Assembly: GCF_024502345.1 (NCBI RefSeq)
Contig: NZ_JALDNN010000001.1
Direction: 5' to 3' (one strand)
Length of the DNA: 64,000 nt
DNA from: Escherichia coli
GTDB taxonomy: Bacteria; Pseudomonadota; Gammaproteobacteria; Enterobacterales; Enterobacteriaceae
Shown here: positions 16,923 to 46,821 of the stretch, in pieces
How positions within the stretch are numbered: position 1 is the stretch's first letter
How the letters are laid out: each line of letters opens with the position of its first letter
Program-made: the position numbers and the translations under genes
Notes under the pieces: generated by a model
Told to the model about the DNA's origin: nothing
The model's database searches: none
What the model saw: only the letters and a program-made list of their open reading frames with translations

Positions 16923-16962
16923 ATGAAAATGGCCGGATGGTATTACCCCCCCGGCCTTAAAA

Positions 16963-17895
16963 TTACTGACAAATCACCGTTCCGGTTTTGCCTTCAATCC
17001 CTTCTTTCGCTTTGCTCAATACGGTAATCAGTGCTTCACGACCTGCGCGAGAGCGAGCAAACGAGGCGGCAGCTTCCACTTTAGGCAGCATAGAACCTTT
17101 CGCAAAATGACCTTCTTCGATAAAGCGTTCAGCATCACTTAATGACAGGCGATCGAGCCACTGTTCATTCTCTTTACCGAAGTTAATGGCCACTTTTTCT
17201 ACCGCAGTCAGAATGATCAGCATATCGGCATCAATCATTTCTGCTAAACGGGCGCTGGCCCAGTCTTTATCGATAACCGCGCTGGCACCACGCAGATGGT
17301 TACCTTCACGAATAACAGGAATACCACCACCGCCAACGGTGATCACCACCTGGCCTGCATCTACCAGAGCTTTAACCGTTTCTTTTTCAATAATATCAAC
17401 CGGTTTTGGCGAGGCAACAACACGGCGATAGCCGCGACCAGCATCTTCTTTCAGAGTGTAACCCTGTTTTGTCAGTTGCTCTGCTTCTTGCTCGGTAAAG
17501 AACGAACCGATCGGCTTGGTCGGGTTGAGGAATGCCGGATCGTTAGCGTCGACTTCGACCTGAGTAACCAGCGTTGCTACCGGTTTATTAATGCCCCGAG
17601 AAAGCAGTTCTTCTCTTAAGGCGTTTTGTAGATCGTAACCAATATAACCCTGGCTTAAGGCAACGCAGACAGACATCGGCAGCATTGGCGAGTGCGCTTC
17701 AGTTTTTGCAGCAGCTTCAAAGGCCTGGTTAATCATGCCCACCTGCGGCCCGTTACCATGAGTGACGATAACTTCATGTCCTTGGGCAATTAAATCAACA
17801 ATTGCCTGAGAAGTAATTTTTACCGCTTTCATTTGTCCGGCCAGGTCATCGCCCAGCGCATTCCCGCCCAGGGCGAGAACAATTTTCTTACTCAT
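16963..17895 (-). CDS. yqeA: carbamate kinase-like protein
   Basis: 310 aa ORF with the amino-acid kinase fold N-terminus (KIVLALGGNALG). Confidence 0.8.
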   Translation of the reverse strand: MSKKIVLALGGNALGDDLAGQMKAVKITSQAIVDLIAQGHEVIVTHGNGPQVGMINQAFEAAAKTEAHSPMLPMSVCVALSQGYIGYDLQNALREELLSRGINKPVATLVTQVEVDANDPAFLNPTKPIGSFFTEQEAEQLTKQGYTLKEDAGRGYRRVVASPKPVDIIEKETVKALVDAGQVVITVGGGGIPVIREGNHLRGASAVIDKDWASARLAEMIDADMLIILTAVEKVAINFGKENEQWLDRLSLSDAERFIEEGHFAKGSMLPKVEAAASFARSRAGREALITVLSKAKEGIEGKTGTVICQ

Positions 17896-21903: not shown

Positions 21904-23094
21904 TTATTTCACGCGTTCTTGCGCTTCTTTCAGCAGTTGCTCGAGCAGTGCACCTGGTTTGGCGTATTTACGGGACAGGATCATCGCGGCGATGATATAA
22001 GGCTTCCAGCTGGCTTCTTTGTAGGTAGCGATACGGTATTTTTCGAATACGCCTTCAGTCACTTCACCTTCTTTGCAGGATACGCCGCTGATATCAGCTG
22101 GCAGGCAGTGCATGTACAGGGCTTCGCCATCACGGGTCAGTTCCATCATCTCTTCAGTACAATGCCAGTCTTTGTGTTGCGCGTTCTGTGCCAGACACTG
22201 TTTTTCCAGTGCTTTTAAGCCTTCGTGGTCGTTCGCACGCAGCAATTCAGTACGCTCTTCCATCACTTTGTAAGGTGCCCATGACTTCGGATAAACGATG
22301 TCTGCATCTTTGAACGCTTCTTCCATGCTGGTGACCTGACGGAAGCTACCGCCAGATGCTTTAGCATTGTTTTTCGCCACTTCAACCACATCCGGGATCA
22401 GGTCGTAGCCTTCCGGATGGGCCAGGGTGACATCCATACCGAAGCGAGTCATCAGACCGATGATGCCTTGTGGTACAGAGAGCGGTTTGCCATAGCTTGG
22501 AGAGTAGGCCCAGGTCATGGCGATTTTTTTACCTTTCAGGTTTTCCAGTGAACCAAAGTGTTCACGTAACCACGCGAGGTCAGCCATTGACTGAGTCGGG
22601 TGGTCAATATCGCATTGCAGGTTCACTAAAGCCGGACGCTGTGGCAGTACACCCTGCTTGTAACCGTCATCAAGTGCAGCGCCAACTTCACGCATATAGG
22701 CGTTGCCTGCGCCCAGATACATATCGTCGCGAATACCAATAGCGTCGGCGCAGAAGGAGATCATATTGGCGGTTTCACGCACGGTTTCGCCGTGAGCGAT
22801 TTGTGATTTGCCTTCGTCGAGATCTTGTTGTGCAAGGCCGAGCAGGTTAAGCGCGGAAGCATAAGAGAAGCGGGTACGGGTGGAGTTGTCGCGGAATACG
22901 GAAATACCTAATCCACTATTAAAGACTTTGGTTGAGATGTTTTCAGCACGCAGTGCTTTTAATGCTGCGGCAACGTCCAGTACTTGTTTCAGTTCATCTG
23001 GCGTCTGTTCCCACGTTAACAAAAAATCTTTCTCGTGAAGGTGAGAGGTCAGCGAATTGATATCCTTAATCAGCTCATTAACAGTTTTCATCAT
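21904..23094 (-). CDS. ygeW: transcarbamylase-family protein (ornithine/aspartate carbamoyltransferase-like)
   Basis: 396 aa ORF; carbamoyl-phosphate-binding STRTR motif. Confidence 0.8.
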   Translation of the reverse strand: MMKTVNELIKDINSLTSHLHEKDFLLTWEQTPDELKQVLDVAAALKALRAENISTKVFNSGLGISVFRDNSTRTRFSYASALNLLGLAQQDLDEGKSQIAHGETVRETANMISFCADAIGIRDDMYLGAGNAYMREVGAALDDGYKQGVLPQRPALVNLQCDIDHPTQSMADLAWLREHFGSLENLKGKKIAMTWAYSPSYGKPLSVPQGIIGLMTRFGMDVTLAHPEGYDLIPDVVEVAKNNAKASGGSFRQVTSMEEAFKDADIVYPKSWAPYKVMEERTELLRANDHEGLKALEKQCLAQNAQHKDWHCTEEMMELTRDGEALYMHCLPADISGVSCKEGEVTEGVFEKYRIATYKEASWKPYIIAAMILSRKYAKPGALLEQLLKEAQERVK

Positions 23095-29122: not shown

Positions 29123-29464
29123 AAACGACGATAAGCGTTAGGGGAGGTAGGAAGTGTGATGACGTTAAAAAAACACAGATATGATACGAAACAGGACTCT
29201 GAATAGGGGCAGTGATACGTATCAATATGAGTGGCGATAAAATCAATGTGATAAATTGGGATTATTACGCATCAGGATGGGAAATAGGGTAAAAAGTCAG
29301 GAACTTCGATACCTCTACAGCGAATATTTTGCTGATGATACTTCCCTTTGCCAAATGAAATTAACCTCTTTCTCTATTACCACGTTTTTCCAGAAGCAAG
29401 AGATTGGGTATCAAGAGGCTGGCTGCTATGATAAGGCGTCTTGTTTTTTAAGCGAGGAAAGATT

Positions 29465-30220
29465 TTGAGTGCGGGACGCCTGAATAAAAAATCTCTGGGT
29501 ATCGTGATGTTGTTATCGGTTGGACTGCTTTTGGCGGGCTGTTCGGGTAGCAAATCATCCGATACAGGAACGTATTCCGGCTCCGTTTACACCGTGAAAC
29601 GGGGGGATACGCTATATCGTATTTCGCGCACCACGGGAACCAGCGTAAAAGAACTGGCGCGACTGAACGGCATTTCCCCCCCTTACACCATTGAAGTTGG
29701 TCAGAAACTAAAACTGGGTGGGGCGAAAAGTAGCAGTAGTACACGTAAATCAACCGCCAAATCAACGACCAAAACCGCATCGGTTACACCGTCATCAGCG
29801 GTACCGAAATCTTCCTGGCCGCCAGTAGGGCAACGTTGTTGGTTATGGCCAACGACAGGGAAAGTTATCATGCCGTATTCGACAGCAGATGGCGGCAATA
29901 AAGGGATTGATATCTCAGCTCCACGGGGTACACCTATTTACGCCGCGGGTGCAGGAAAGGTGGTGTATGTGGGCAACCAGCTGCGTGGCTACGGTAATCT
30001 CATCATGATTAAACACAGTGAAGATTACATTACGGCTTACGCCCATAATGACACGATGCTGGTAAATAATGGGCAAAGCGTGAAGGCTGGGCAAAAAATC
30101 GCCACTATGGGGAGCACGGATGCGGCATCTGTTCGCCTGCATTTCCAGATTCGTTACCGTGCAACGGCAATTGATCCGCTACGTTACTTGCCGCCGCAGG
30201 GCAGCAAGCCAAAATGCTGA
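29465..30220 (+). CDS. ygeR: LysM-domain / M23-peptidase-family lipoprotein
   Basis: lipobox LLAGCSG after a signal peptide, LysM motif (YTVKRGDTLYRISRTTG) and C-terminal M23 domain; the ORF track starts at TTG 29441, a TTG at 29465 is the more likely start. Confidence 0.8.
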   Translation: MSAGRLNKKSLGIVMLLSVGLLLAGCSGSKSSDTGTYSGSVYTVKRGDTLYRISRTTGTSVKELARLNGISPPYTIEVGQKLKLGGAKSSSSTRKSTAKSTTKTASVTPSSAVPKSSWPPVGQRCWLWPTTGKVIMPYSTADGGNKGIDISAPRGTPIYAAGAGKVVYVGNQLRGYGNLIMIKHSEDYITAYAHNDTMLVNNGQSVKAGQKIATMGSTDAASVRLHFQIRYRATAIDPLRYLPPQGSKPKC

Positions 30221-30298
30221 TGGCGAATTAATCAGCAGTCAGCAGCGCGGCACTTGCTAAGGAGAGCGTAAGGTTTATAATGCCTTACGCATCTCGAA

Positions 30299-30372
30299 GC
30301 GGGCGTAGTTCAATGGTAGAACGAGAGCTTCCCAAGCTCTATACGAGGGTTCGATTCCCTTCGCCCGCTCCA
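30299..30372 (+). tRNA. glyU: tRNA-Gly (anticodon CCC)
   Basis: 74-nt sequence GCGGGCGTAGTTCAATGGTAGAACGAGAGCTTCCCAAGCTCTATACGAGGGTTCGATTCCCTTCGCCCGCTCCA with cloverleaf and CCC anticodon. Confidence 0.95.
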
Positions 30373-30563
30373 ATTTATCTTCACCTGATCAATCTGCCAT
30401 TTTTGCTGTATCTGATTTTCTATATTATCTTAATTCAATCGCTTCAGGCTTTTCGCAATCGCTGTAACACTTCCCCATTTTTTTGTAAATAAAAAGCGTT
30501 TACGCAATGCAATCCTTTTGTAACAACCCAGGTAAAACACCTTATTTTCAAGTTGTTAAATAA

Positions 30564-31139
30564 GTGGTTATCTACGCTTTTAACAAACGATTGATGGAAT
30601 ATTTTATGAAAGGGAAATCTGCATTAACTCTTCTGCTCGCTGGTATATTTTCGTGCGGCACATGCCAGGCGACAGGGGCAGAAGTGACGAGTGAATCTGT
30701 ATTTAACATTCTTAATTCCACGGGGCAGCAACAGATAAAAGTTATTTATCGTTAAATCCAGATAAGTACCCTAATTATCGTCTTCTGATTCACTCAGCCA
30801 AATTAAAAAATGAAATAAAGAGCCACTATACCAAAGACGAAATTCAAGGGTTGTTAACATTAACAGAAAACACACGAAAGTTAACGTTGACGGAGAAACC
30901 CTGGGGAACATTTATTCTTGCTTCTACTTTCGAAGATGACAAAACAGCGGCAGAAACCCACTATGATGGTGTCTGGCTGAGGGATAGTTTATGGGGCTAT
31001 ATGGCATTAGTATCAGATCAGGGAAATAGTGTAGCCGCAAAAAAGGTTCTGCTCACCCTGTGGGATTATATGTCTACGCCCGACCAGATTAAGCGGATGC
31101 AGGACGTCATTAGCAACCCCAAACGACTGGATGGAGTTC
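30564..31139 (+). pseudogene. frameshifted, 3'-truncated island gene remnant (signal-peptide protein, possibly ygeP/ygeQ-like), cut by the IS3 end
   Basis: two ORFs in different frames (30564..30755 with a signal peptide; 30851..31156) in AT-rich DNA next to glyU; the second ORF runs into the IS3 terminal repeat at 31140. Confidence 0.4.
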
Positions 31140-31169
31140 TGATCCTACCCACGTAATATGGACACAGGC

Positions 31170-32036
31170 CTAAGCGAGGTTCTGGTTTTCAAATTGTTCC
31201 GGACTGAGGCCGCCACACCAACTGTGCCGCCGCCACCGATTGTAATCACATTCGATATAATTAAACACCGTTGCCCGCATTATTTCCCGGCTGATAAAGT
31301 GTTCTCCATGGATACATTCCACTTTCAGCGAATGAAAGAAGCTTTCCACGCAGGCATTATCGTAGCAGCAACCTTTTGCGCTCATACTTCCACGCAGATT
31401 ATGCCGCTTCAGTTGCGCCTGATAATCTGCTGAACAGTACTGGCCTCCACGGTCCGTGTGAACGATAACGTTCCGGGGCCTCTTACGCCGCCACAGCGCC
31501 ATCTGCAGGGCATCGCAGGCCAGTTGCGCCGTCATGCGTGGCGACATTGACCAGCCAATAACGGCACGTGACCACAGGTCAATGACCACTGCCAGATACA
31601 GCCAGCCTTCATCTGTACGTAAGTACGTGATGTCTCCTGCCCACTTCTGGTTCGGGCCACTGGCGTAAAAATCCTGCTCCAACAGATTTTCTGACACAGG
31701 CAGGCCGTGTGCGCGGTAGCTGACCGGGCTGAACTTCCGGGAGGCCTTTGCCCTCAGTCCCTGACGGCGCAGGCTTGCCGCCACGGTTTTTACGTTAAAG
31801 GGGTAACCCTGAGCACGCAGTTCATCCGTCAGGCGTGGGGCACCGTAACGCTGTTTTGACCGGGTAAAAGCCGCGAGGACAACGCTGTCGCAGTGTTGGC
31901 GGAACTGCTGACGCGTGCTTATCCTTGTCCGCCGCTGACACCACGTATACCAGCCGCTGCGGGCCACCCGGAGCACGCGGCACATTGCTTTGATGCTGAA
32001 CTCAGCCTGATGTTTTTCAATAAAGACATACTTCAT
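31170..32036 (-). CDS. insF: IS3 transposase OrfB (DDE integrase domain)
   Basis: 288 aa ORF matching IS3 InsF ([32 protein letters not shown]...). Confidence 0.9.
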
Positions 32037-32062
32037 TTCAGGCGCTTCGCGAAGTATGTCGC

Positions 32063-33283
32063 TGTAGATTCAATTGGTCAACGCAACAGTTATGTGAAAA
32101 CATGGGGTTGCGGAGGTTTTTTGAATGAGACGAACATTTACAGCAGAGGAAAAAGCCTCTGTTTTTGAACTATGGAAGAACGGAACAGGCTTCAGTGAAA
32201 TAGCGAATATCCTGGGTTCAAAACCCGGAACGATCTTCACTATGTTAAGGGATACTGGCGGCATAAAACCCCATGAGCGTAAGCGGGCTGTAGCTCACCT
32301 GACACTGTCTGAGCGCGAGGAGATACGAGCTGGTTTGTCAGCCAAAATGAGCATTCGTGCGATAGCTACTGCGCTGAATCGCAGTCCTTCGACGATCTCA
32401 CGTGAAGTTCAGCGTAATCGGGGCAGACGCTATTACAAAGCTGTTGATGCTAATAACCGAGCCAACAGAATGGCGAAAAGGCCAAAACCGTGCTTACTGG
32501 ATCAAAATTTACCATTGCGAAAGCTTGTTCTGGAAAAGCTGGAGATGAAATGGTCTCCAGAGCAAATATCAGGATGGTTAAGGCGAACAAAACCACGTCA
32601 AAAAACGCTGCGAATATCACCTGAGACAATTTATAAAACGCTGTACTTTCGTAGCCGTGAAGCGCTACACCACCTGAATATACAGCATCTGCGACGGTCG
32701 CATAGCCTTCGCCATGGCAGGCGTCATACCCGCAAAGGCGAAAGAGGTACGATTAACATAGTGAACGGAACACCAATTCACGAACGTTCCCGAAATATCG
32801 ATAACAGACGCTCTCTGGGGCATTGGGAGGGCGATTTAGTCTCAGGTACAAAAAACTCTCATATAGCCACACTTGTAGACCGAAAATCACGTTATACGAT
32901 CATCCTTAGACTCAGGGGCAAAGATTCTGTCTCAGTAAATCAGGCTCTTACCGACAAATTCCTGAGTTTACCGTCAGAACTCAGAAAATCACTGACATGG
33001 GACAGAGGAATGGAACTGGCCAGACATCTAGAATTTACTGTCAGCACCGGCGTTAAAGTTTACTTCTGCGATCCTCAGAGTCCTTGGCAGCGGGGAACAA
33101 ATGAGAACACAAATGGGCTAATTCGGCAGTACTTTCCTAAAAAGACATGTCTTGCCCAATATACTCAACATGAACTAGATCTGGTTGCTGCTCAGCTAAA
33201 CAACAGACCGAGAAAGACACTGAAGTTCAAAACACCGAAAGAGATAATTGAAAGGGGTGTTGCATTGACAGATTGAATCTACA
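32063..33283 (+). mobile_element. IS30 insertion sequence (1221 bp) with 2-bp GC target-site duplication
   Basis: terminal repeats TGTAGATTCAATTGGTCAACGC (32063) and its complement ending ...GATTGAATCTACA (33283); flanking GC at 32061..32062 and 33284..33285. Confidence 0.9.
32125..33276 (+). CDS. insI: IS30 transposase
   Basis: 383 aa ORF (MRRTFTAEEKASVFELWKNGTGFSEIANILG...), DDE transposase. Confidence 0.9.
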   Translation: MRRTFTAEEKASVFELWKNGTGFSEIANILGSKPGTIFTMLRDTGGIKPHERKRAVAHLTLSEREEIRAGLSAKMSIRAIATALNRSPSTISREVQRNRGRRYYKAVDANNRANRMAKRPKPCLLDQNLPLRKLVLEKLEMKWSPEQISGWLRRTKPRQKTLRISPETIYKTLYFRSREALHHLNIQHLRRSHSLRHGRRHTRKGERGTINIVNGTPIHERSRNIDNRRSLGHWEGDLVSGTKNSHIATLVDRKSRYTIILRLRGKDSVSVNQALTDKFLSLPSELRKSLTWDRGMELARHLEFTVSTGVKVYFCDPQSPWQRGTNENTNGLIRQYFPKKTCLAQYTQHELDLVAAQLNNRPRKTLKFKTPKEIIERGVALTD

Positions 33284-33555
33284 GCGGCCTTTTGGAGGAT
33301 AGCCAGCTCTTCATCCCGTTCTGCCAGCTGGCGTTTGAGACGTGCAATCTCGGTAGACATCTCCAGTTCACGTTCAGAAGACGTCTGCTGATTTTGCTGT
33401 TTACTGCGCCAGTTGTAGAGCTGTGATTCATACAGGCTGAGTTCACGGGCTGCGGCAGTAACACCGATGCGTTCAGCAAGCTTCAGGGCTTCACTGCGAA
33501 ATTCAGGCGAATGCTGTTTACGGGGTTTTTTACTGGTTGATACTGTTTTTGTCAT
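33284..33555 (-). pseudogene. insE: IS3 OrfA (InsE), 3'-disrupted by the IS30 insertion
   Basis: translation MTKTVSTSKKPRKQHSPEFRSEALKLAERIGV...AILQKAA, then reading continues into the IS30 end. Confidence 0.7.
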
Positions 33556-33620
33556 GTGAGTCACCTCTGACTGAGAGTTTACTCACTTAGCCGCGTGTCC
33601 ACTATTGCTGGGTAAGATCA

Positions 33621-34231
33621 TAGATGCTACGGATATCCATATCCAGAACTTCAGCAATCTGATATGGATTATAACCAGAAACCATATACCCCATTATGGT
33701 GAATTCCATCTGAGTTAATGTGTTACCTCTGGTAAATGATAAATAACGACCAATAAATAGTTGTCTGATCTTTTCATTGGCAACATCAAGACCATCATCA
33801 TTATATATGACAGCAGATATTGCTGAGTTGTGTTTTCGCCAGTAATTAGCTAACGATTGCATATTGCGGTCGCTGACTAAAACAATCCCCATGTCAGTAC
33901 TTGCAAGATAGTCAATCCAGTCTTTTTCAAGGAATAGACGTAAAAAACTTACTGAAAAATCGACAAAAATATATCCGCTTAATCTCGCATTGTGGTTTTT
34001 AGTTAAGATACCTTCTACCACACCACGATTAAAATATGAACTTTCTTCGGGCCACATACAAAAACACGAGTTTGCGCAGTACTGCAAACGCGGTGACTCT
34101 TCTGGCATTATTTGGCAATGCATTGAGCAACTATTGCATGTAAGACTTTTATAACGACTACAAAGCCCCATGTTAAGAACCTCCCTATCCGTATATAATT
34201 GCATAATTTCATTGGTGATTGATGATGTCAA
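33621..34231 (-). pseudogene. LuxR-type HTH regulator (yqeH-like), C-terminally truncated by the IS3 insertion
   Basis: ORF 33602..34231 has a GerE/LuxR-like HTH at its C-terminus (LTQMEFTIMGYMVSGYNPYQIAEVLDMDIRSI); its last 6 codons and stop are supplied by IS3 sequence. Confidence 0.5.
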
Positions 34232-34630
34232 TACACCATGATTTTGTAATTTTGCTGGGAAAAATTGCGATTAATCTGTATTTGCTATAATTCTGATTAA
34301 GACATTTTAAAATGCATTTCTCGTTATTAAATATGATTATGTTTCACTGATTTAATCTTACCTGGTTGAGGGTGGTTCAGATAACTATCTCATGGTATGA
34401 GAATATCTATATCGCAAATTGTTTTTGAATGACCAGAAGATATCTTGCGAATCTAAGTTATGCATCTTAAATGGTCTTATTTAAGATGTTCAGATCTCTT
34501 TGTGTGTTTAACTAACTGATAATACTAGGATATGATGAGAGAAGTGATAGGGCGGAATAATAACGAATGAACATTATGAAAACTGGAATGGTTCAAAATT
34601 GTAGCAATTTTGAACCATTCACAATGGATA

Positions 34631-34864
34631 TCAGCTAAAGAACATTACCGATACGCACAGGATACCCACGATCAGCGTAATCAGATTTCCGATGGAACGC
34701 CAGGGTTTAAGCGCCGGGATCAGATACGTTGACAACGTAGGCATGATGAAAAGTATCATGGCAATGAGCGGGCCGCTGATCGCGTAAATCATCGAAATCG
34801 CGTTCGGGTTAATGCAACAAACAATGAAGGTGATCAGCGATACCAACATAATTGATAGTGCGCG
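34631..34864 (-). pseudogene. 3' fragment of a membrane transporter gene (yqeG-like), 5' part replaced by the IS903-family element
   Basis: 78 codons of hydrophobic C-terminal sequence ending at a stop codon; the reading frame upstream runs straight into the IS terminal repeat. Confidence 0.5.
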
Positions 34865-35922
34865 GGGCTTTGTTGAATAAATCGAACTTTTGCTGAGTTG
34901 AAGGATCAGATCACGTATCTTCCCGACAACGCAGACCGTTCCGTGGCAAAGCAAAAGTTCAAAATCACCAACTGGCCCACCTACAATAAAGCCCTCATCA
35001 ACCGTGGCTCCATAACTTTCTGGCTGGATGATGAAGCTATTCAGGCCTGGTATGAGTCAGCAACACCTTCTTCACGAGGCAGACCTCAGCGCTATTCTGA
35101 CCTTGCCATCACGACTGTGCTGGTCATTAAACGCGTATTCAGGCTGACCCTGCGCGCTGCGCAGGGCTTTATTGATTCCATTTTTTCTCTGATGAACGTT
35201 CCGCTACGCTGCCCGGATTACAGCTGTGTCAGCAGGCGGGCAAAGTCGGTTAATGTCAGTTTCAAAACGCCCACCCGGGGTGAAATCGCACACCTGGTAA
35301 TTGATTCCACCGGGCTGAAGGTCTTCGGTGAAGGCGAGTGGAAAGTCAAAAAGCATGGCCAGGAACGCCGCCGTATCTGGCGTAAGCTGCATCTCGCCGT
35401 TGACAGTAAAACACATGAAATCATCTGCGCTGACCTGTCGCTGAACAACGTTACGGACTCAGAGGCCTTCCCCGGGTTAATCCGGCAAACCCACCGGAAA
35501 ATCAGGTCAGCCGCCGCCGATGGCGCTTACGATACCCGGCTATGTCACGATGAACTGCGGCGTAAGAAAATCAGCGCGCTTATCCCTCCCCGAAAAGGTG
35601 CGGGTTACTGGCCCGGTGAATATGCAGACCGTAACCGTGCAGTGGCTAATCAGCGAATGACCGGGAGTAATGCGCGGTGGAAATGGACAACAGATTACAA
35701 CCGTCGCTCGATAGCGGAAACGGCGATGTACCGGGTAAAACAGCTGTTCGGGGGTTCACTGACACTGCGTGACTACGATGGTCAGGTTGCAGAGGCTATG
35801 GCCCTGGTACGAGCGCTGAACAAAATGACGAAAGCAGGTATGCCTGAAAGCGTGCGTATTGCCTGAAAACACAACCCGCTACGGGGGAGACTTACCCGAA
35901 ATCTGATTTATTCAACAAAGCC
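34865..35922 (+). mobile_element. IS903-group (IS5 family) insertion sequence, 1058 bp, no target-site duplication
   Basis: 18-bp terminal inverted repeats GGCTTTGTTGAATAAATC at both ends (34865 and, as complement, ending 35922); flanking 9-mers differ (TAGTGGCGG vs CATTCTTCT). Confidence 0.9.
34898..35866 (+). CDS. IS903-family DDE transposase
   Basis: 322 aa ORF containing ...AADGAYDTRLCHDELRRKKISALIPPRKGAGYWPGEY...; the true start may be an internal Met. Confidence 0.85.
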   Translation: MKDQITYLPDNADRSVAKQKFKITNWPTYNKALINRGSITFWLDDEAIQAWYESATPSSRGRPQRYSDLAITTVLVIKRVFRLTLRAAQGFIDSIFSLMNVPLRCPDYSCVSRRAKSVNVSFKTPTRGEIAHLVIDSTGLKVFGEGEWKVKKHGQERRRIWRKLHLAVDSKTHEIICADLSLNNVTDSEAFPGLIRQTHRKIRSAAADGAYDTRLCHDELRRKKISALIPPRKGAGYWPGEYADRNRAVANQRMTGSNARWKWTTDYNRRSIAETAMYRVKQLFGGSLTLRDYDGQVAEAMALVRALNKMTKAGMPESVRIA

Positions 35923-35942
35923 CATTCTTCTTACTTTTATGA

Positions 35943-35966
35943 CCCTGCCGCATGGCAGGGTTTTTT
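35943..35966 (+). terminator. intrinsic terminator, presumably the remnant 3' end of the deleted upstream gene (kduD in the reference arrangement)
   Basis: stem CCCTGCCGCATGGCAGGG followed by TTTTTT, 20 bp after the IS right end. Confidence 0.5.
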
Positions 35967-36133
35967 ATATCTGTAGATCATCATAATCCATATCATGGTT
36001 ATGAAATAATCCATATCAATTATCAATTAATGAACTTTATGAATTTTATCTGCTGTAAAATTAGGTGATTAATAATAATATCAATAATTCAACTTAATTT
36101 GAAAATTGGAATATCCATCACATAACGACATGT

Positions 36134-36194
36134 CGTAGCAATTTAATCCATATTTATGCTGTTTCCGACCTGACACCTGTGTGAGTTGTTCACG
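36134..36194 (+). promoter_or_regulatory. araE promoter region with AraC-type and CRP-type binding sites
   Basis: TAGCAATTTAATCCATA resembles the araI1 half-site TAGCATTTTTATCCATA; TGTGAGTTGTTCACG matches the CRP consensus TGTGA-N6-TCACA; 40 to 100 bp upstream of araE. Confidence 0.45.
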
Positions 36195-36231
36195 TATTTT
36201 TTCACTATGTCTTACTCTCTGCTGGCAGGAA

Positions 36232-37653
36232 AAAATGGTTACTATCAATACGGAATCTGCTTTAACGCCACGTTCTTTGCGGGATACGCGGCGTATGAAT
36301 ATGTTTGTTTCGGTAGCTGCTGCGGTCGCAGGATTGTTATTTGGTCTTGATATCGGCGTAATCGCCGGAGCGTTGCCGTTCATTACCGATCACTTTGTGC
36401 TGACCAGTCGTTTGCAGGAATGGGTGGTTAGTAGCATGATGCTCGGTGCAGCAATTGGTGCGCTGTTTAATGGTTGGCTGTCGTTCCGCCTGGGGCGTAA
36501 ATACAGCCTGATGGCGGGGGCCATCCTGTTTGTACTCGGTTCTATAGGGTCCGCTTTTGCGACCAGCGTAGAGATGTTAATCGCCGCTCGTGTGGTGCTG
36601 GGCATTGCTGTCGGGATCGCGTCTTACACCGCTCCTCTGTATCTTTCTGAAATGGCAAGTGAAAACGTTCGCGGTAAGATGATCAGTATGTACCAGTTGA
36701 TGGTCACACTCGGCATCGTGCTGGCGTTTTTATCCGATACAGCGTTCAGTTATAGCGGTAACTGGCGCGCAATGTTGGGGGTTCTTGCTTTACCAGCAGT
36801 TCTGCTGATTATTCTGGTGGTCTTCCTGCCAAATAGCCCGCGCTGGCTGGCGGAAAAGGGGCGTCATATTGAGGCGGAAGAAGTATTGCGTATGCTGCGC
36901 GATACGTCGGAAAAAGCGCGAGAAGAACTCAACGAAATTCGTGAAAGCCTGAAGTTAAAACAGGGCGGTTGGGCACTGTTTAAGATCAACCGTAACGTCC
37001 GTCGTGCTGTGTTTCTCGGTATGTTGTTGCAGGCGATGCAGCAGTTTACCGGTATGAACATCATCATGTACTACGCGCCGCGTATCTTCAAAATGGCGGG
37101 CTTTACGACCACAGAACAACAGATGATTGCGACTCTGGTCGTAGGGCTGACCTTTATGTTCGCCACCTTTATTGCGGTGTTTACGGTAGATAAAGCAGGG
37201 CGTAAACCGGCTCTGAAAATTGGTTTCAGCGTGATGGCGTTAGGCACTCTGGTGCTGGGCTATTGCCTGATGCAGTTTGATAACGGTACGGCTTCCAGTG
37301 GCTTGTCCTGGCTCTCTGTTGGCATGACGATGATGTGTATTGCCGGTTATGCGATGAGCGCCGCGCCAGTGGTGTGGATCCTGTGCTCTGAAATTCAGCC
37401 GCTGAAATGCCGCGATTTCGGTATTACCTGTTCGACCACCACGAACTGGGTGTCGAATATGATTATCGGCGCGACCTTCCTGACGCTGCTCGACAGCATT
37501 GGCGCTGCCGGTACGTTCTGGCTCTACACTGCGCTGAACATTGCGTTTGTGGGCATCACTTTCTGGCTCATTCCGGAAACCAAAAATGTCACGCTGGAAC
37601 ATATCGAACGCAAACTGATGGCAGGCGAGAAGTTGAGAAATATCGGCATCTGA
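36232..37653 (+). CDS. araE: arabinose:H+ symporter (MFS sugar porter)
   Basis: 472 aa; [50 protein letters not shown]...; the ORF track's extended start 36181 is rejected. Confidence 0.9.
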
Positions 37654-42031: not shown

Positions 42032-42114
42032 CCCAGAGGTATTGATAGGTGAAGTCAACTTCGGGTTGAGCACATGAATTACACCAGCCTGCGCAGATGC
42101 GCAGGTTTTTTTTT
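42032..42114 (+). ncRNA. omrB: small regulatory RNA OmrB
   Basis: CCCAGAGGTATTGATAGGTGAAGTCAACTTCGGG...CCTGCGCAGATGCGCAGG followed by a T-run; shares conserved 5' and 3' ends with the adjacent OmrA copy. Confidence 0.85.
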
Positions 42115-42228: not shown

Positions 42229-42316
42229 CCCAGAGGTATTGATTGGTGAGATTATTCGGTACGCTCTTCGTACCCTGTCTCTTGCACCAACCTGCGCGGA
42301 TGCGCAGGTTTTTTTT
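42229..42316 (+). ncRNA. omrA: small regulatory RNA OmrA
   Basis: CCCAGAGGTATTGATTGGTGAGATTATTCGGTACGC...CCTGCGCGGATGCGCAGG followed by a T-run; terminator hairpin plus poly-U. Confidence 0.85.
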
Positions 42317-45780: not shown

Positions 45781-46821
45781 TTATGGTGCCGGATAAGTAT
45801 AAACCTGATGCACCGCTTCAATTTCAGCTAATACGTCTTCGCTTAACTCCAGATGCAAACTTTCGATGTTAGTTTTCAGCTGATCCATCGTGGTTGCGCC
45901 CAGCAGAGTGCTGGCAACAAACGGTTGACGGCGTACAAACGCGAGCGCCATCTGAGCAGGGTCCAGGCCATGACGTCTGGCGATATCAACATACGCCGCG
46001 ACGGCTTTTTGCGTTTGCTCACCGCTATAGCGGGTGAACCGACTAAAGAGCGTATTACGTGCGCCAGCGGGTTTTGCACCATTGAGATATTTCCCGGTCA
46101 GCGTGCCGAAACCCAGGCACGAATAGGCCAGCAGTTCGACCCCTTCATACTGGCTGACTTCTGCCAGACCTACTTCAAAACTGCGGTTTAACAGACTGTA
46201 AGGGTTCTGAATGGTGACAATACGCGGCAGATCGTGTTTGTCCGCCAGATGCAGGTAGCGCATTACGCCAAATGCAGTTTCGTTCGACACGCCGATATAA
46301 CGAATTTTTCCCGCGCGTTGGTACTCTGCCAGTGCGTCCAGCGTATCCAGCAGCGAAACCGCAGGCGCAGAATCCGTCCAGCTATAACCGAGTTTGCCGA
46401 AGCAGTTGGTCGGGCGCTGCGGCCAGTGCACCTGATAAAGATCGAGGTAATCAGTCTGTAGGCGCTTGAGGCTGTCATGCAGCGCTTCGCGGATATTCTT
46501 CCGATCCAGCGCCTGATCCGGGCGGATGCCCTTGTCATTATTGCGCGACGGTCCGCTCACTTTGGAGGCGATAATTAACTTTTCGCGGCTGCCATGTTTC
46601 GCCAGCCAGTTGCCGACGTAGGTTTCGGTTAACCCTTGCGTTTCGGGGCGCGGAGGTACTGGGTACATTTCGGCAACGTCGATAAGGTTAATGCCCTGAG
46701 CGACGGCATAGTCGAGTTGTGCGTGGGCGTCGGCTTCGCTGTTCTGTTCACCAAACGTCATCGTGCCAAGCCCCAGCGTGCTGACTTCCAGCGAACTGTG
46801 GGGTATACGGTGATATTGCAT
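45781..46821 (-). CDS. tas: aldo-keto reductase
   Basis: 346 aa; AKR family. Confidence 0.9.
   Translation of the reverse strand: MQYHRIPHSSLEVSTLGLGTMTFGEQNSEADAHAQLDYAVAQGINLIDVAEMYPVPPRPETQGLTETYVGNWLAKHGSREKLIIASKVSGPSRNNDKGIRPDQALDRKNIREALHDSLKRLQTDYLDLYQVHWPQRPTNCFGKLGYSWTDSAPAVSLLDTLDALAEYQRAGKIRYIGVSNETAFGVMRYLHLADKHDLPRIVTIQNPYSLLNRSFEVGLAEVSQYEGVELLAYSCLGFGTLTGKYLNGAKPAGARNTLFSRFTRYSGEQTQKAVAAYVDIARRHGLDPAQMALAFVRRQPFVASTLLGATTMDQLKTNIESLHLELSEDVLAEIEAVHQVYTYPAP

Follow-up and report, generated by a model that had tools for sequence, protein, structure and literature searches.

Mutational attrition of ETT2, the cryptic type III secretion island of Escherichia coli, has been documented since 2004, the year of a survey by Ren et al. 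that is said to be the primary one of its deletion types. The island has been published as lying between the tRNA gene glyU and yqeG (PMC3977695, PMC11068852) and as comprising ECs3703 to ECs3737 (PMC3977695). Its GC content is given as 36.9% (PMC3977695, PMC11068852), compared with 50.8% for the chromosome (PMC3977695), and its attrition is widespread, with remnants described in all four safe laboratory strains (PMC3032704, PMC7058095, PMC11068852). Here we describe what is left of ETT2 in a 64-kb stretch of an E. coli chromosome (contig NZ_JALDNN010000001.1 of assembly GCF_024502345.1), hereafter the window, in which the segment under study, 30373-34864, follows directly on glyU. The window aligned end to end with K-12 MG1655 in reverse orientation (3,029,535→2,954,419) at 98-99.4% identity, and it departed from K-12 collinearity at the glyU locus and at one intergenic indel of about 181 bp near 16930-16973. 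We are very confident that the segment is a non-functional ETT2 stump at the usual site of the island, and that its IS3-bounded deletion is an allele shared with E. coli B and C as well as with nearly 200 other complete genomes.

The best-known arrangements of the site differ from this one to varying extents. O157:H7 Sakai carries the reference island of about 30 kb at the same site, with terminal genes that are 98-99% identical to those of the window and similarly low in GC, but it keeps about 27.5 kb with the eiv, epa, and epr genes, whereas only about 1.47 kb, without any of these genes, survives in the window. A degraded island is found at the same site in K-12 MG1655, in which yqeH and ygeQ are present as in the window. 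K-12 nevertheless has about 10.2 kb more (yqeI through ygeP), yqeH and ygeQ at full length, and another internal deletion, which is associated with IS2 (IS2H). E. coli B (BL21(DE3), NC_012971.2, and REL606) and E. coli C show the same ygeQ'-IS3-'yqeH-yqeG layout as the window, with both breakpoints in common and DNA that is 99.3-99.7% identical. The allele is therefore already known, since this very deletion is present in E. coli B and E. coli C, whose genomes are finished and annotated. Unlike these strains, the window contains IS30 within IS3 and an IS903B-bounded loss of the 5' part of yqeG, yqeF, kduI, and kduD; a 1-bp frameshift in ygeQ' is shared by the window and strain A30 but not by BL21. 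Finally, an empty-site allele (e.g., LR778152.1) resembles the window in having no secretion system. It consists of the glyU and yqeG neighbors and a spacer of about 310 bp, with no ygeQ or yqeH DNA and no insertion sequence (IS), whereas the window keeps both ends of the island.

The layout reported below was derived from alignment with BL21(DE3), strain A30, K-12, and O157 Sakai and from direct reading of the junction sequences. Prevalence was counted in 5,426 complete E. coli genomes.

The ETT2 stump and its IS3-bounded deletion

The glyU gene, which encodes tRNA-Gly(CCC) and adjoins ETT2, occupies 30299-30372 on the plus strand (ARAGORN; Rfam tRNA model, 71.6 bits; K-12 annotation) and is the sole tRNA gene of the window. 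From glyU to the yqeG stump, the locus is collinear with K-12 and Sakai, in which ETT2 is annotated between these two genes. Only the two terminal genes of the island were matched in it, namely, ECs3703 (yqeH) over residues 1-184 and ECs3737 (ygeQ) over residues 1-178, with a DNA identity to Sakai of 98-99% (98.5-98.7%). A tblastn search with all Sakai proteins from ECs3704 to ECs3736 (E ≤ 1e-3), by which the apparatus genes eivA/C/G, epaO-S, eprH-K, and orgA/B were looked for, returned no match anywhere in the 64-kb window. Judged by homology, genes for the secretion apparatus, for chaperones, and for other ETT2 regulators are all missing from the window, and the remnant allows no secretion function.

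Island boundaries were set by comparison with ETT2-free genomes (L011-L013) and fall at about 30514/30515 on the left and 34460/34461 on the right. The spacer 3' of glyU, 30373-30514, is core DNA that is conserved in these genomes, and the alignment diverges past about 30514-30522. Between the boundaries, 625 + 840 = ~1,465 bp of island DNA remain, corresponding to about 5% of the roughly 27.5 kb that lie between the same boundaries in Sakai. The non-IS DNA of the segment (2,012 bp) has a GC content of 37.9%, against 49.8% and 51.5% for the left and right flanks, and this low value speaks for an ETT2 remnant. For the whole of 30373-34864 the GC content is 44.4%, with 55% of the segment being IS DNA at 45-55% GC (55.1% and 50.1% for the two parts of IS3 and 45.5% for IS30). 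No integrase open reading frame (ORF) was present among the window ORFs between glyU and yqeG, and a comparison of the island boundaries for att-like repeats or a duplicated glyU 3' end revealed no shared repeat of at least 9 bp.

An initial annotation had proposed a minimal, decayed ETT2-type remnant directly downstream of glyU, containing a frameshifted signal-peptide gene, IS3::IS30, a C-terminally truncated LuxR-type regulator, and a transporter stump, with no type III secretion structural genes. All of these elements were found within 1 bp of where it had put them and can now be named: the first is ygeQ/ECs3737, the regulator is yqeH' with its GerE domain cut, the transporter stump is the end of yqeG, and the IS pair is a single IS3 holding IS30 between GC duplications. 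The identity of the tRNA gene, the ETT2 position at glyU, the absence of structural genes, and the relationship of the fragments to ETT2 genes, here ECs3737 and ECs3703, likewise stood up to comparison, as did the lower GC content relative to the core that had been suggested as a check. Its description of the DNA as AT-rich is accurate for the non-IS part and holds only weakly for the segment as a whole.

IS3 typically measures 1258 bp, has inverted repeats starting with TGATC, carries orfA and orfB, and produces a 3-bp target duplication upon simple insertion. The copy at 31140-33620, on the minus strand, is complete and consists of 1258 bp plus the IS30 insert. In its right-hand part (31140-32062), which is collinear with the IS3 of BL21 and starts with the right inverted repeat end TGATCCTACCC, orfB is intact (InsF, 288 amino acids, 31170-32036). 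In the left-hand part (33284-33620), which terminates in the left inverted repeat end GGGTAAGATCA, IS30 disrupts orfA at its 3' end. Direct reading of the sequence revealed the flanking triplets TTC and TAG and hence no 3-bp target duplication, as would be expected if this IS3 bounds a deletion instead of representing a simple insertion.

The ends of the deletion, window positions 31139 and 33621, correspond to positions 46673 and 20614 of the Sakai segment (L007) and to positions 22295 and 12087 of the K-12 segment (L006). Compared to Sakai, about 26.06 kb (ECs3704-ECs3736) were lost, a stretch that begins in the 3' end of yqeH and takes in most of ECs3736; relative to the already degraded island of K-12, the same deletion amounts to 10,207 bp. 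A single IS3-bounded deletion accounts for the whole loss of ETT2. In this first step, the N-terminal part of ygeQ/ECs3737 was joined, via one copy of IS3, to yqeH/ECs3703 at residue 184; all of the eiv, epa, and epr apparatus genes were removed, as were the regulators ygeH, etrA, and eivF. Because IS3 lacks a target duplication, we infer one of two origins for the deletion: homologous recombination between two IS3 copies in the same orientation, inserted in ygeQ and yqeH, respectively, or IS3-promoted adjacent deletion. Independent IS3 events elsewhere in ETT2, all of which have the same orientation, support the two-copy route. They comprise simple insertions in yqeI (PM4-5) and at the 5' end of yqeH (MB7671), as well as a different IS3-bounded deletion in strain VG12A2, with the structure ygeQ'-IS3-'epaS.

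IS30, IS903B, and the spread of the allele

IS30 extends from 32063 to 33283 on the plus strand (1221 bp) and encodes an intact transposase of 383 amino acids (32125-33276). It is inserted at the 3' end of IS3 orfA, between orfA and the intact orfB, with ends TGTAGATTCAATTGG...CAGATTGAATCTACA and a perfect 2-bp GC duplication at 32061-62 and 33284-85. BL21 and A30 lack IS30 at exactly this point, where their alignments with the window overlap by 2 bp. In a second step, later and in this lineage only, IS30 entered IS3 as a simple insertion without any loss of sequence. The interrupted IS3 would no longer be able to produce the fused OrfAB transposase. Hot-spot targeting with 2-bp staggered integration has been described for IS30 (PMC9333248). 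The identical IS3::IS30 junction was detected in 33 complete genomes at other chromosomal places, such as near ypjA (LD22-1) and in the ynfE/Qin region (CX21), so that at least three chromosomal contexts are known if this locus is counted, which suggests either a hot spot for IS30 within IS3 or the spread of a composite element.

A third IS element lies on the other side of the remnant. IS903B belongs to the IS5 family, and its expected form is 1057 bp long, with inverted repeats of about 18 bp (GGCTTTGTTGAATAAATC) and a 9-bp duplication if it results from a simple insertion. The copy at 34866-35922 (plus strand) measures 1057 bp, contains an intact 322-amino-acid transposase gene (34898-35866), and is 100% identical to annotated copies. 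Its canonical ends, GGCTTTGTTGAATAAATCG...CGATTTATTCAACAAAGCC, are flanked by AGTGCGCGG and CATTCTTCT, i.e., there is no 9-bp target duplication, which is consistent with a deletion formed at one end of the element. This deletion comprises 4,347 bp in K-12 coordinates and took away yqeF, kduI, kduD, and 995 bp at the 5' end of yqeG. Core DNA restarts at 35923, which is 2 bp beyond the stop codon of kduD, and the kduD terminator hairpin is left in place. As a third step, this IS903B-bounded deletion of 4.35 kb occurred beside the remnant; it hit flanking genes and not ETT2 as published. The right edge of the segment delimited by the initial annotation, 34864, abuts IS903B, which was not described there. 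IS903-type elements were also observed in yqeG of other strains (4114, DDG206, and others) and in ygeQ of one further sequence (L025).

It had been proposed that the island was reduced by successive IS-mediated deletions. This is not what the junctions indicate, since one IS3-bounded deletion suffices, IS30 is a simple insertion, and the IS903B deletion took core genes outside ETT2. Neither is the remnant minimal: in 1,218 of the 5,426 genomes (22%) the site is empty and ETT2 DNA is completely absent.

Among the 5,426 genomes, at most 189 contain the ygeQ'::IS3 junction and at most 198 the IS3::'yqeH junction, both counts being upper bounds from a search that joins pieces up to 600 bp apart. 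Both junctions could be aligned in BL21(DE3), REL606, other B derivatives, E. coli C, A30, NCTC9064, and many others, with only IS30 missing. The IS3-bounded scar is clade-wide rather than specific to this genome. No complete genome was found to cover at least 80% of 29400-36300, the IS30-in-IS3 arrangement was present at this locus in none of them, and neither the IS903B-bounded deletion nor the yqeG::IS903B junction had a contiguous match in any complete E. coli genome. The IS30 insertion and the IS903B-bounded deletion are strain-specific. Exact-protein searches with the ORFs of the yqeG stump and with the 49-amino-acid YgeQ fragment led to alleles other than this one.

Since IS elements are classic sites of misassembly and no complete genome reproduces the full arrangement, we considered whether the nested IS structure could be an artifact of chimeric joins induced by repeats. 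This is scarcely credible. Each of the three elements has precisely its canonical length (1258, 1221, and 1057 bp) and full terminal repeats, and a perfect 2-bp IS30 duplication sits inside an otherwise uninterrupted IS3. Moreover, the two IS3 junctions are seen again in nearly 200 finished genomes, and the identical IS3::IS30 junction in 33.

Some observations weigh against the proposed sequence of events. A search of complete genomes with chimeric queries composed of K-12 sequence and IS3 ends, aimed at a precursor, identified no IS3 at either exact junction in a genome that retained ETT2, and for this reason the route of the deletion stays a deduction. In addition, identity across the left flank was 99.6% or less in every complete genome, and we infer the order and age of IS30 and IS903B only from their absence elsewhere.

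The truncated yqeH gene and the ends of the locus

The right end of the island retains yqeH' (ECs3703; 33602-34171, minus strand), a truncated gene for an EcpR_N/LuxR-type regulator. The native part of YqeH', encoded by 34171-33621, corresponds to residues 1-184 of the 210 residues of K-12 YqeH with one substitution (BLASTP), and the last five residues, DLTQQ-stop, are encoded by the IS3 end. Overall, 184 of its 189 residues are identical to K-12 YqeH. The product is identical, residue for residue, to the 189-amino-acid protein WP_001389254.1 of BL21(DE3), which is annotated as a hypothetical protein, and to that of A30. In full-length YqeH, Pfam places GerE at residues 151-195 (model positions 2-46 of 57). 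The complete C-terminal GerE domain is not present in YqeH', whose native sequence stops at residue 184, so that the recognition helix and the rest of the helix-turn-helix are lost. DNA binding by YqeH' has most likely been abolished, as far as its domain structure can tell, and we regard yqeH' as, in all likelihood, inert and pseudogene-like.

Upstream of yqeH', the native yqeG-yqeH intergenic region is retained (34172-34630, minus strand; consensus scan and empty-site alignment). It includes a promoter-like site, TTGACA-17-AATTAT, at 34231-34203, and the terminator-like hairpin of yqeG at 34620-34586. These features would allow an alternative in which YqeH' is expressed and retained for a function, as an EcpR_N domain protein or a dominant-negative partner, making the locus a domesticated one-gene remnant. 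The ORF is indeed intact, with no difference between the window, BL21, and A30; homologues of YqeH' give the Pfam EcpR_N match; the 459-bp upstream region with the promoter-like site is native, and the yqeG hairpin insulates the gene. For full-length YqeH, regulatory phenotypes have been reported in avian pathogenic E. coli (PMC9014576, as cited in PMC11068852). We nevertheless consider retention for a function improbable. The helix-turn-helix is truncated with the recognition helix gone, the promoter scan as a whole was at chance level, and identity among the carriers is expected of a recent shared allele anyway and provides no evidence of selection. Furthermore, an IS3-free allele, described below, alters the C terminus again to give a product of 185 amino acids, and 22% of the genomes are without any yqeH. 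An inert yqeH' agrees better with these observations.

The left end of the island is formed by the ygeQ'/ECs3737 fragment at 30606-31139 on the plus strand, the N-terminal part of a lipoprotein-like gene, intact homologues of which are annotated by RefSeq as glycoside hydrolase family 15. Its ATG is at 30606, and the product starts with MKGKSALTLLLAGIFSCGTCQA. A 1-bp frameshift near 30722-30725 and the cut by IS3 at 31139 leave residues 1-178 of 187, matched by tblastn in two frames (residues 1-40 and 40-178). The same fragment is annotated in strain A30 as "ygeQ, frameshifted; incomplete." The frameshift sits in a run of G, and the same 49-amino-acid product was observed in strains with a much larger ETT2 (L019, L021, L024, and L026); the ygeQ frameshift is thus either older than the IS3 deletion or recurrent.

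On the far side of the intergenic region, the yqeG stump (34631-34865, minus strand), the end of an amino acid permease gene, comprises the last 77 codons and the stop codon of a gene for 409 amino acids. Residues 333-409 (34864-34634) are 100% identical to Sakai by tblastn, and the alignments with BL21, K-12, and Sakai all stop at 34865. Beyond IS903B, the resumed core DNA (35923-36234, plus strand; alignment with K-12, Sakai, and A30) contains the kduD terminator-like hairpin at 35941-35962, identified by terminator scan, and the upstream region of araE, which follows directly at 36235-37653. The genes araE and ygeA lie downstream of the remnant, and xdhA and actS (ygeR) lie upstream of glyU. 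The latter is an intact core gene on the glyU side (29465-30220, plus strand), all 251 of its 251 residues being identical to Sakai ECs3738 by tblastn, and it is annotated as actS in BL21 and K-12.

Several further observations concern the surroundings of the remnant. Seventy-three bp directly 3' of glyU (30386-30458) are missing in K-12 and present in the window, Sakai, and ETT2-free genomes. In several genomes and metagenome contigs (L022, L023, and L025), a phage-type integrase and phage-like genes are located about 350-1570 bp upstream of ygeQ, in the position of actS, and the glyU side of the locus may serve as a prophage integration site in other strains. At the other departure from K-12 collinearity, 16930-16973, K-12 has about 181 bp extra in the yqeA-yqeB intergenic region, with a 44-bp repeat at the flanks; the indel is probably a variable repetitive intergenic element. 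An Rfam scan of the window for structured RNAs returned only the tRNA in the remnant region, and elsewhere OmrB (42032-42113) and OmrA (42229-42316) in their expected place between galR and aas. The 25-kb core flank at 5000-29999 reached a best identity of 99.5-99.6% among complete RefSeq E. coli genomes, in O103 and O121 strains. Unlike this flank, the island stump is 99.8-99.9% identical to other strains (UID2309220033 and A30), pointing to either a mosaic background or a lineage that is poorly sampled.

The IS3-free allele and the probable loss of its IS element

Of the sequences found, the one closest to the window, a draft genome, lacks the IS3. A direct ygeQ'|'yqeH junction (…GGAGTTC-TG-CTACGG…) was found in draft genome GCA_000194395.2 (L020:7436-7635) and in 13 complete genomes, including STEC O121:H19. 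Its left breakpoint is the same as in the window and its right breakpoint lies within 4 bp. In the draft genome the flanks are 99.9% identical, and IS3, IS30, and the IS903B deletion are all lacking. The IS3-free junction is without the native yqeH bases TAGA (33621-33624), which are kept in the IS3-bearing allele. We take their absence to mean that the IS3-free allele derives from the IS3-bearing one, by loss of the IS at the TG...TG microhomology.

The existence of this junction could also be read in the opposite direction, such that ETT2 was first deleted by illegitimate recombination independent of any IS and IS3 entered the junction later as a passenger. That order of events is very improbable. 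TAGA is kept only in the IS3-bearing allele, and insertion of IS3 could not restore native bases; a later insertion would also have left a 3-bp duplication, which is not present. Loss of IS3 between the TG...TG microhomology, by comparison, explains the IS3-free form simply. The IS3-bounded deletion therefore stands as the earlier event.

A more ambitious interpretation would regard the locus as a record of IS-driven erosion, composed of independent IS3 insertions in the ETT2 of other strains, the IS3-bounded 26-kb deletion, inactivation of its IS3 by the arrival of IS30 at a recurrent hot spot, and, in a sister lineage (O121:H19), loss of IS3 with only an IS-free scar remaining. We view this interpretation as unlikely and place more trust in the simpler description of a known deletion allele in a non-functional stump.

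The value of that description is modest. It defines the scar precisely, by its breakpoints, the extent of the loss (about 26.06 kb), and the share of the island that survives (about 5%), and adds little beyond bookkeeping. Of the changes described, a phenotype is plausible only for the loss of kduI, kduD, yqeF, and most of yqeG, which may affect hexuronate catabolism. The IS3-free allele offers a small, clean example of an IS-mediated deletion scar that would have lost its IS. If this step is general, many island deletions that seem independent of IS elements would in fact be IS mediated, with the agent erased.

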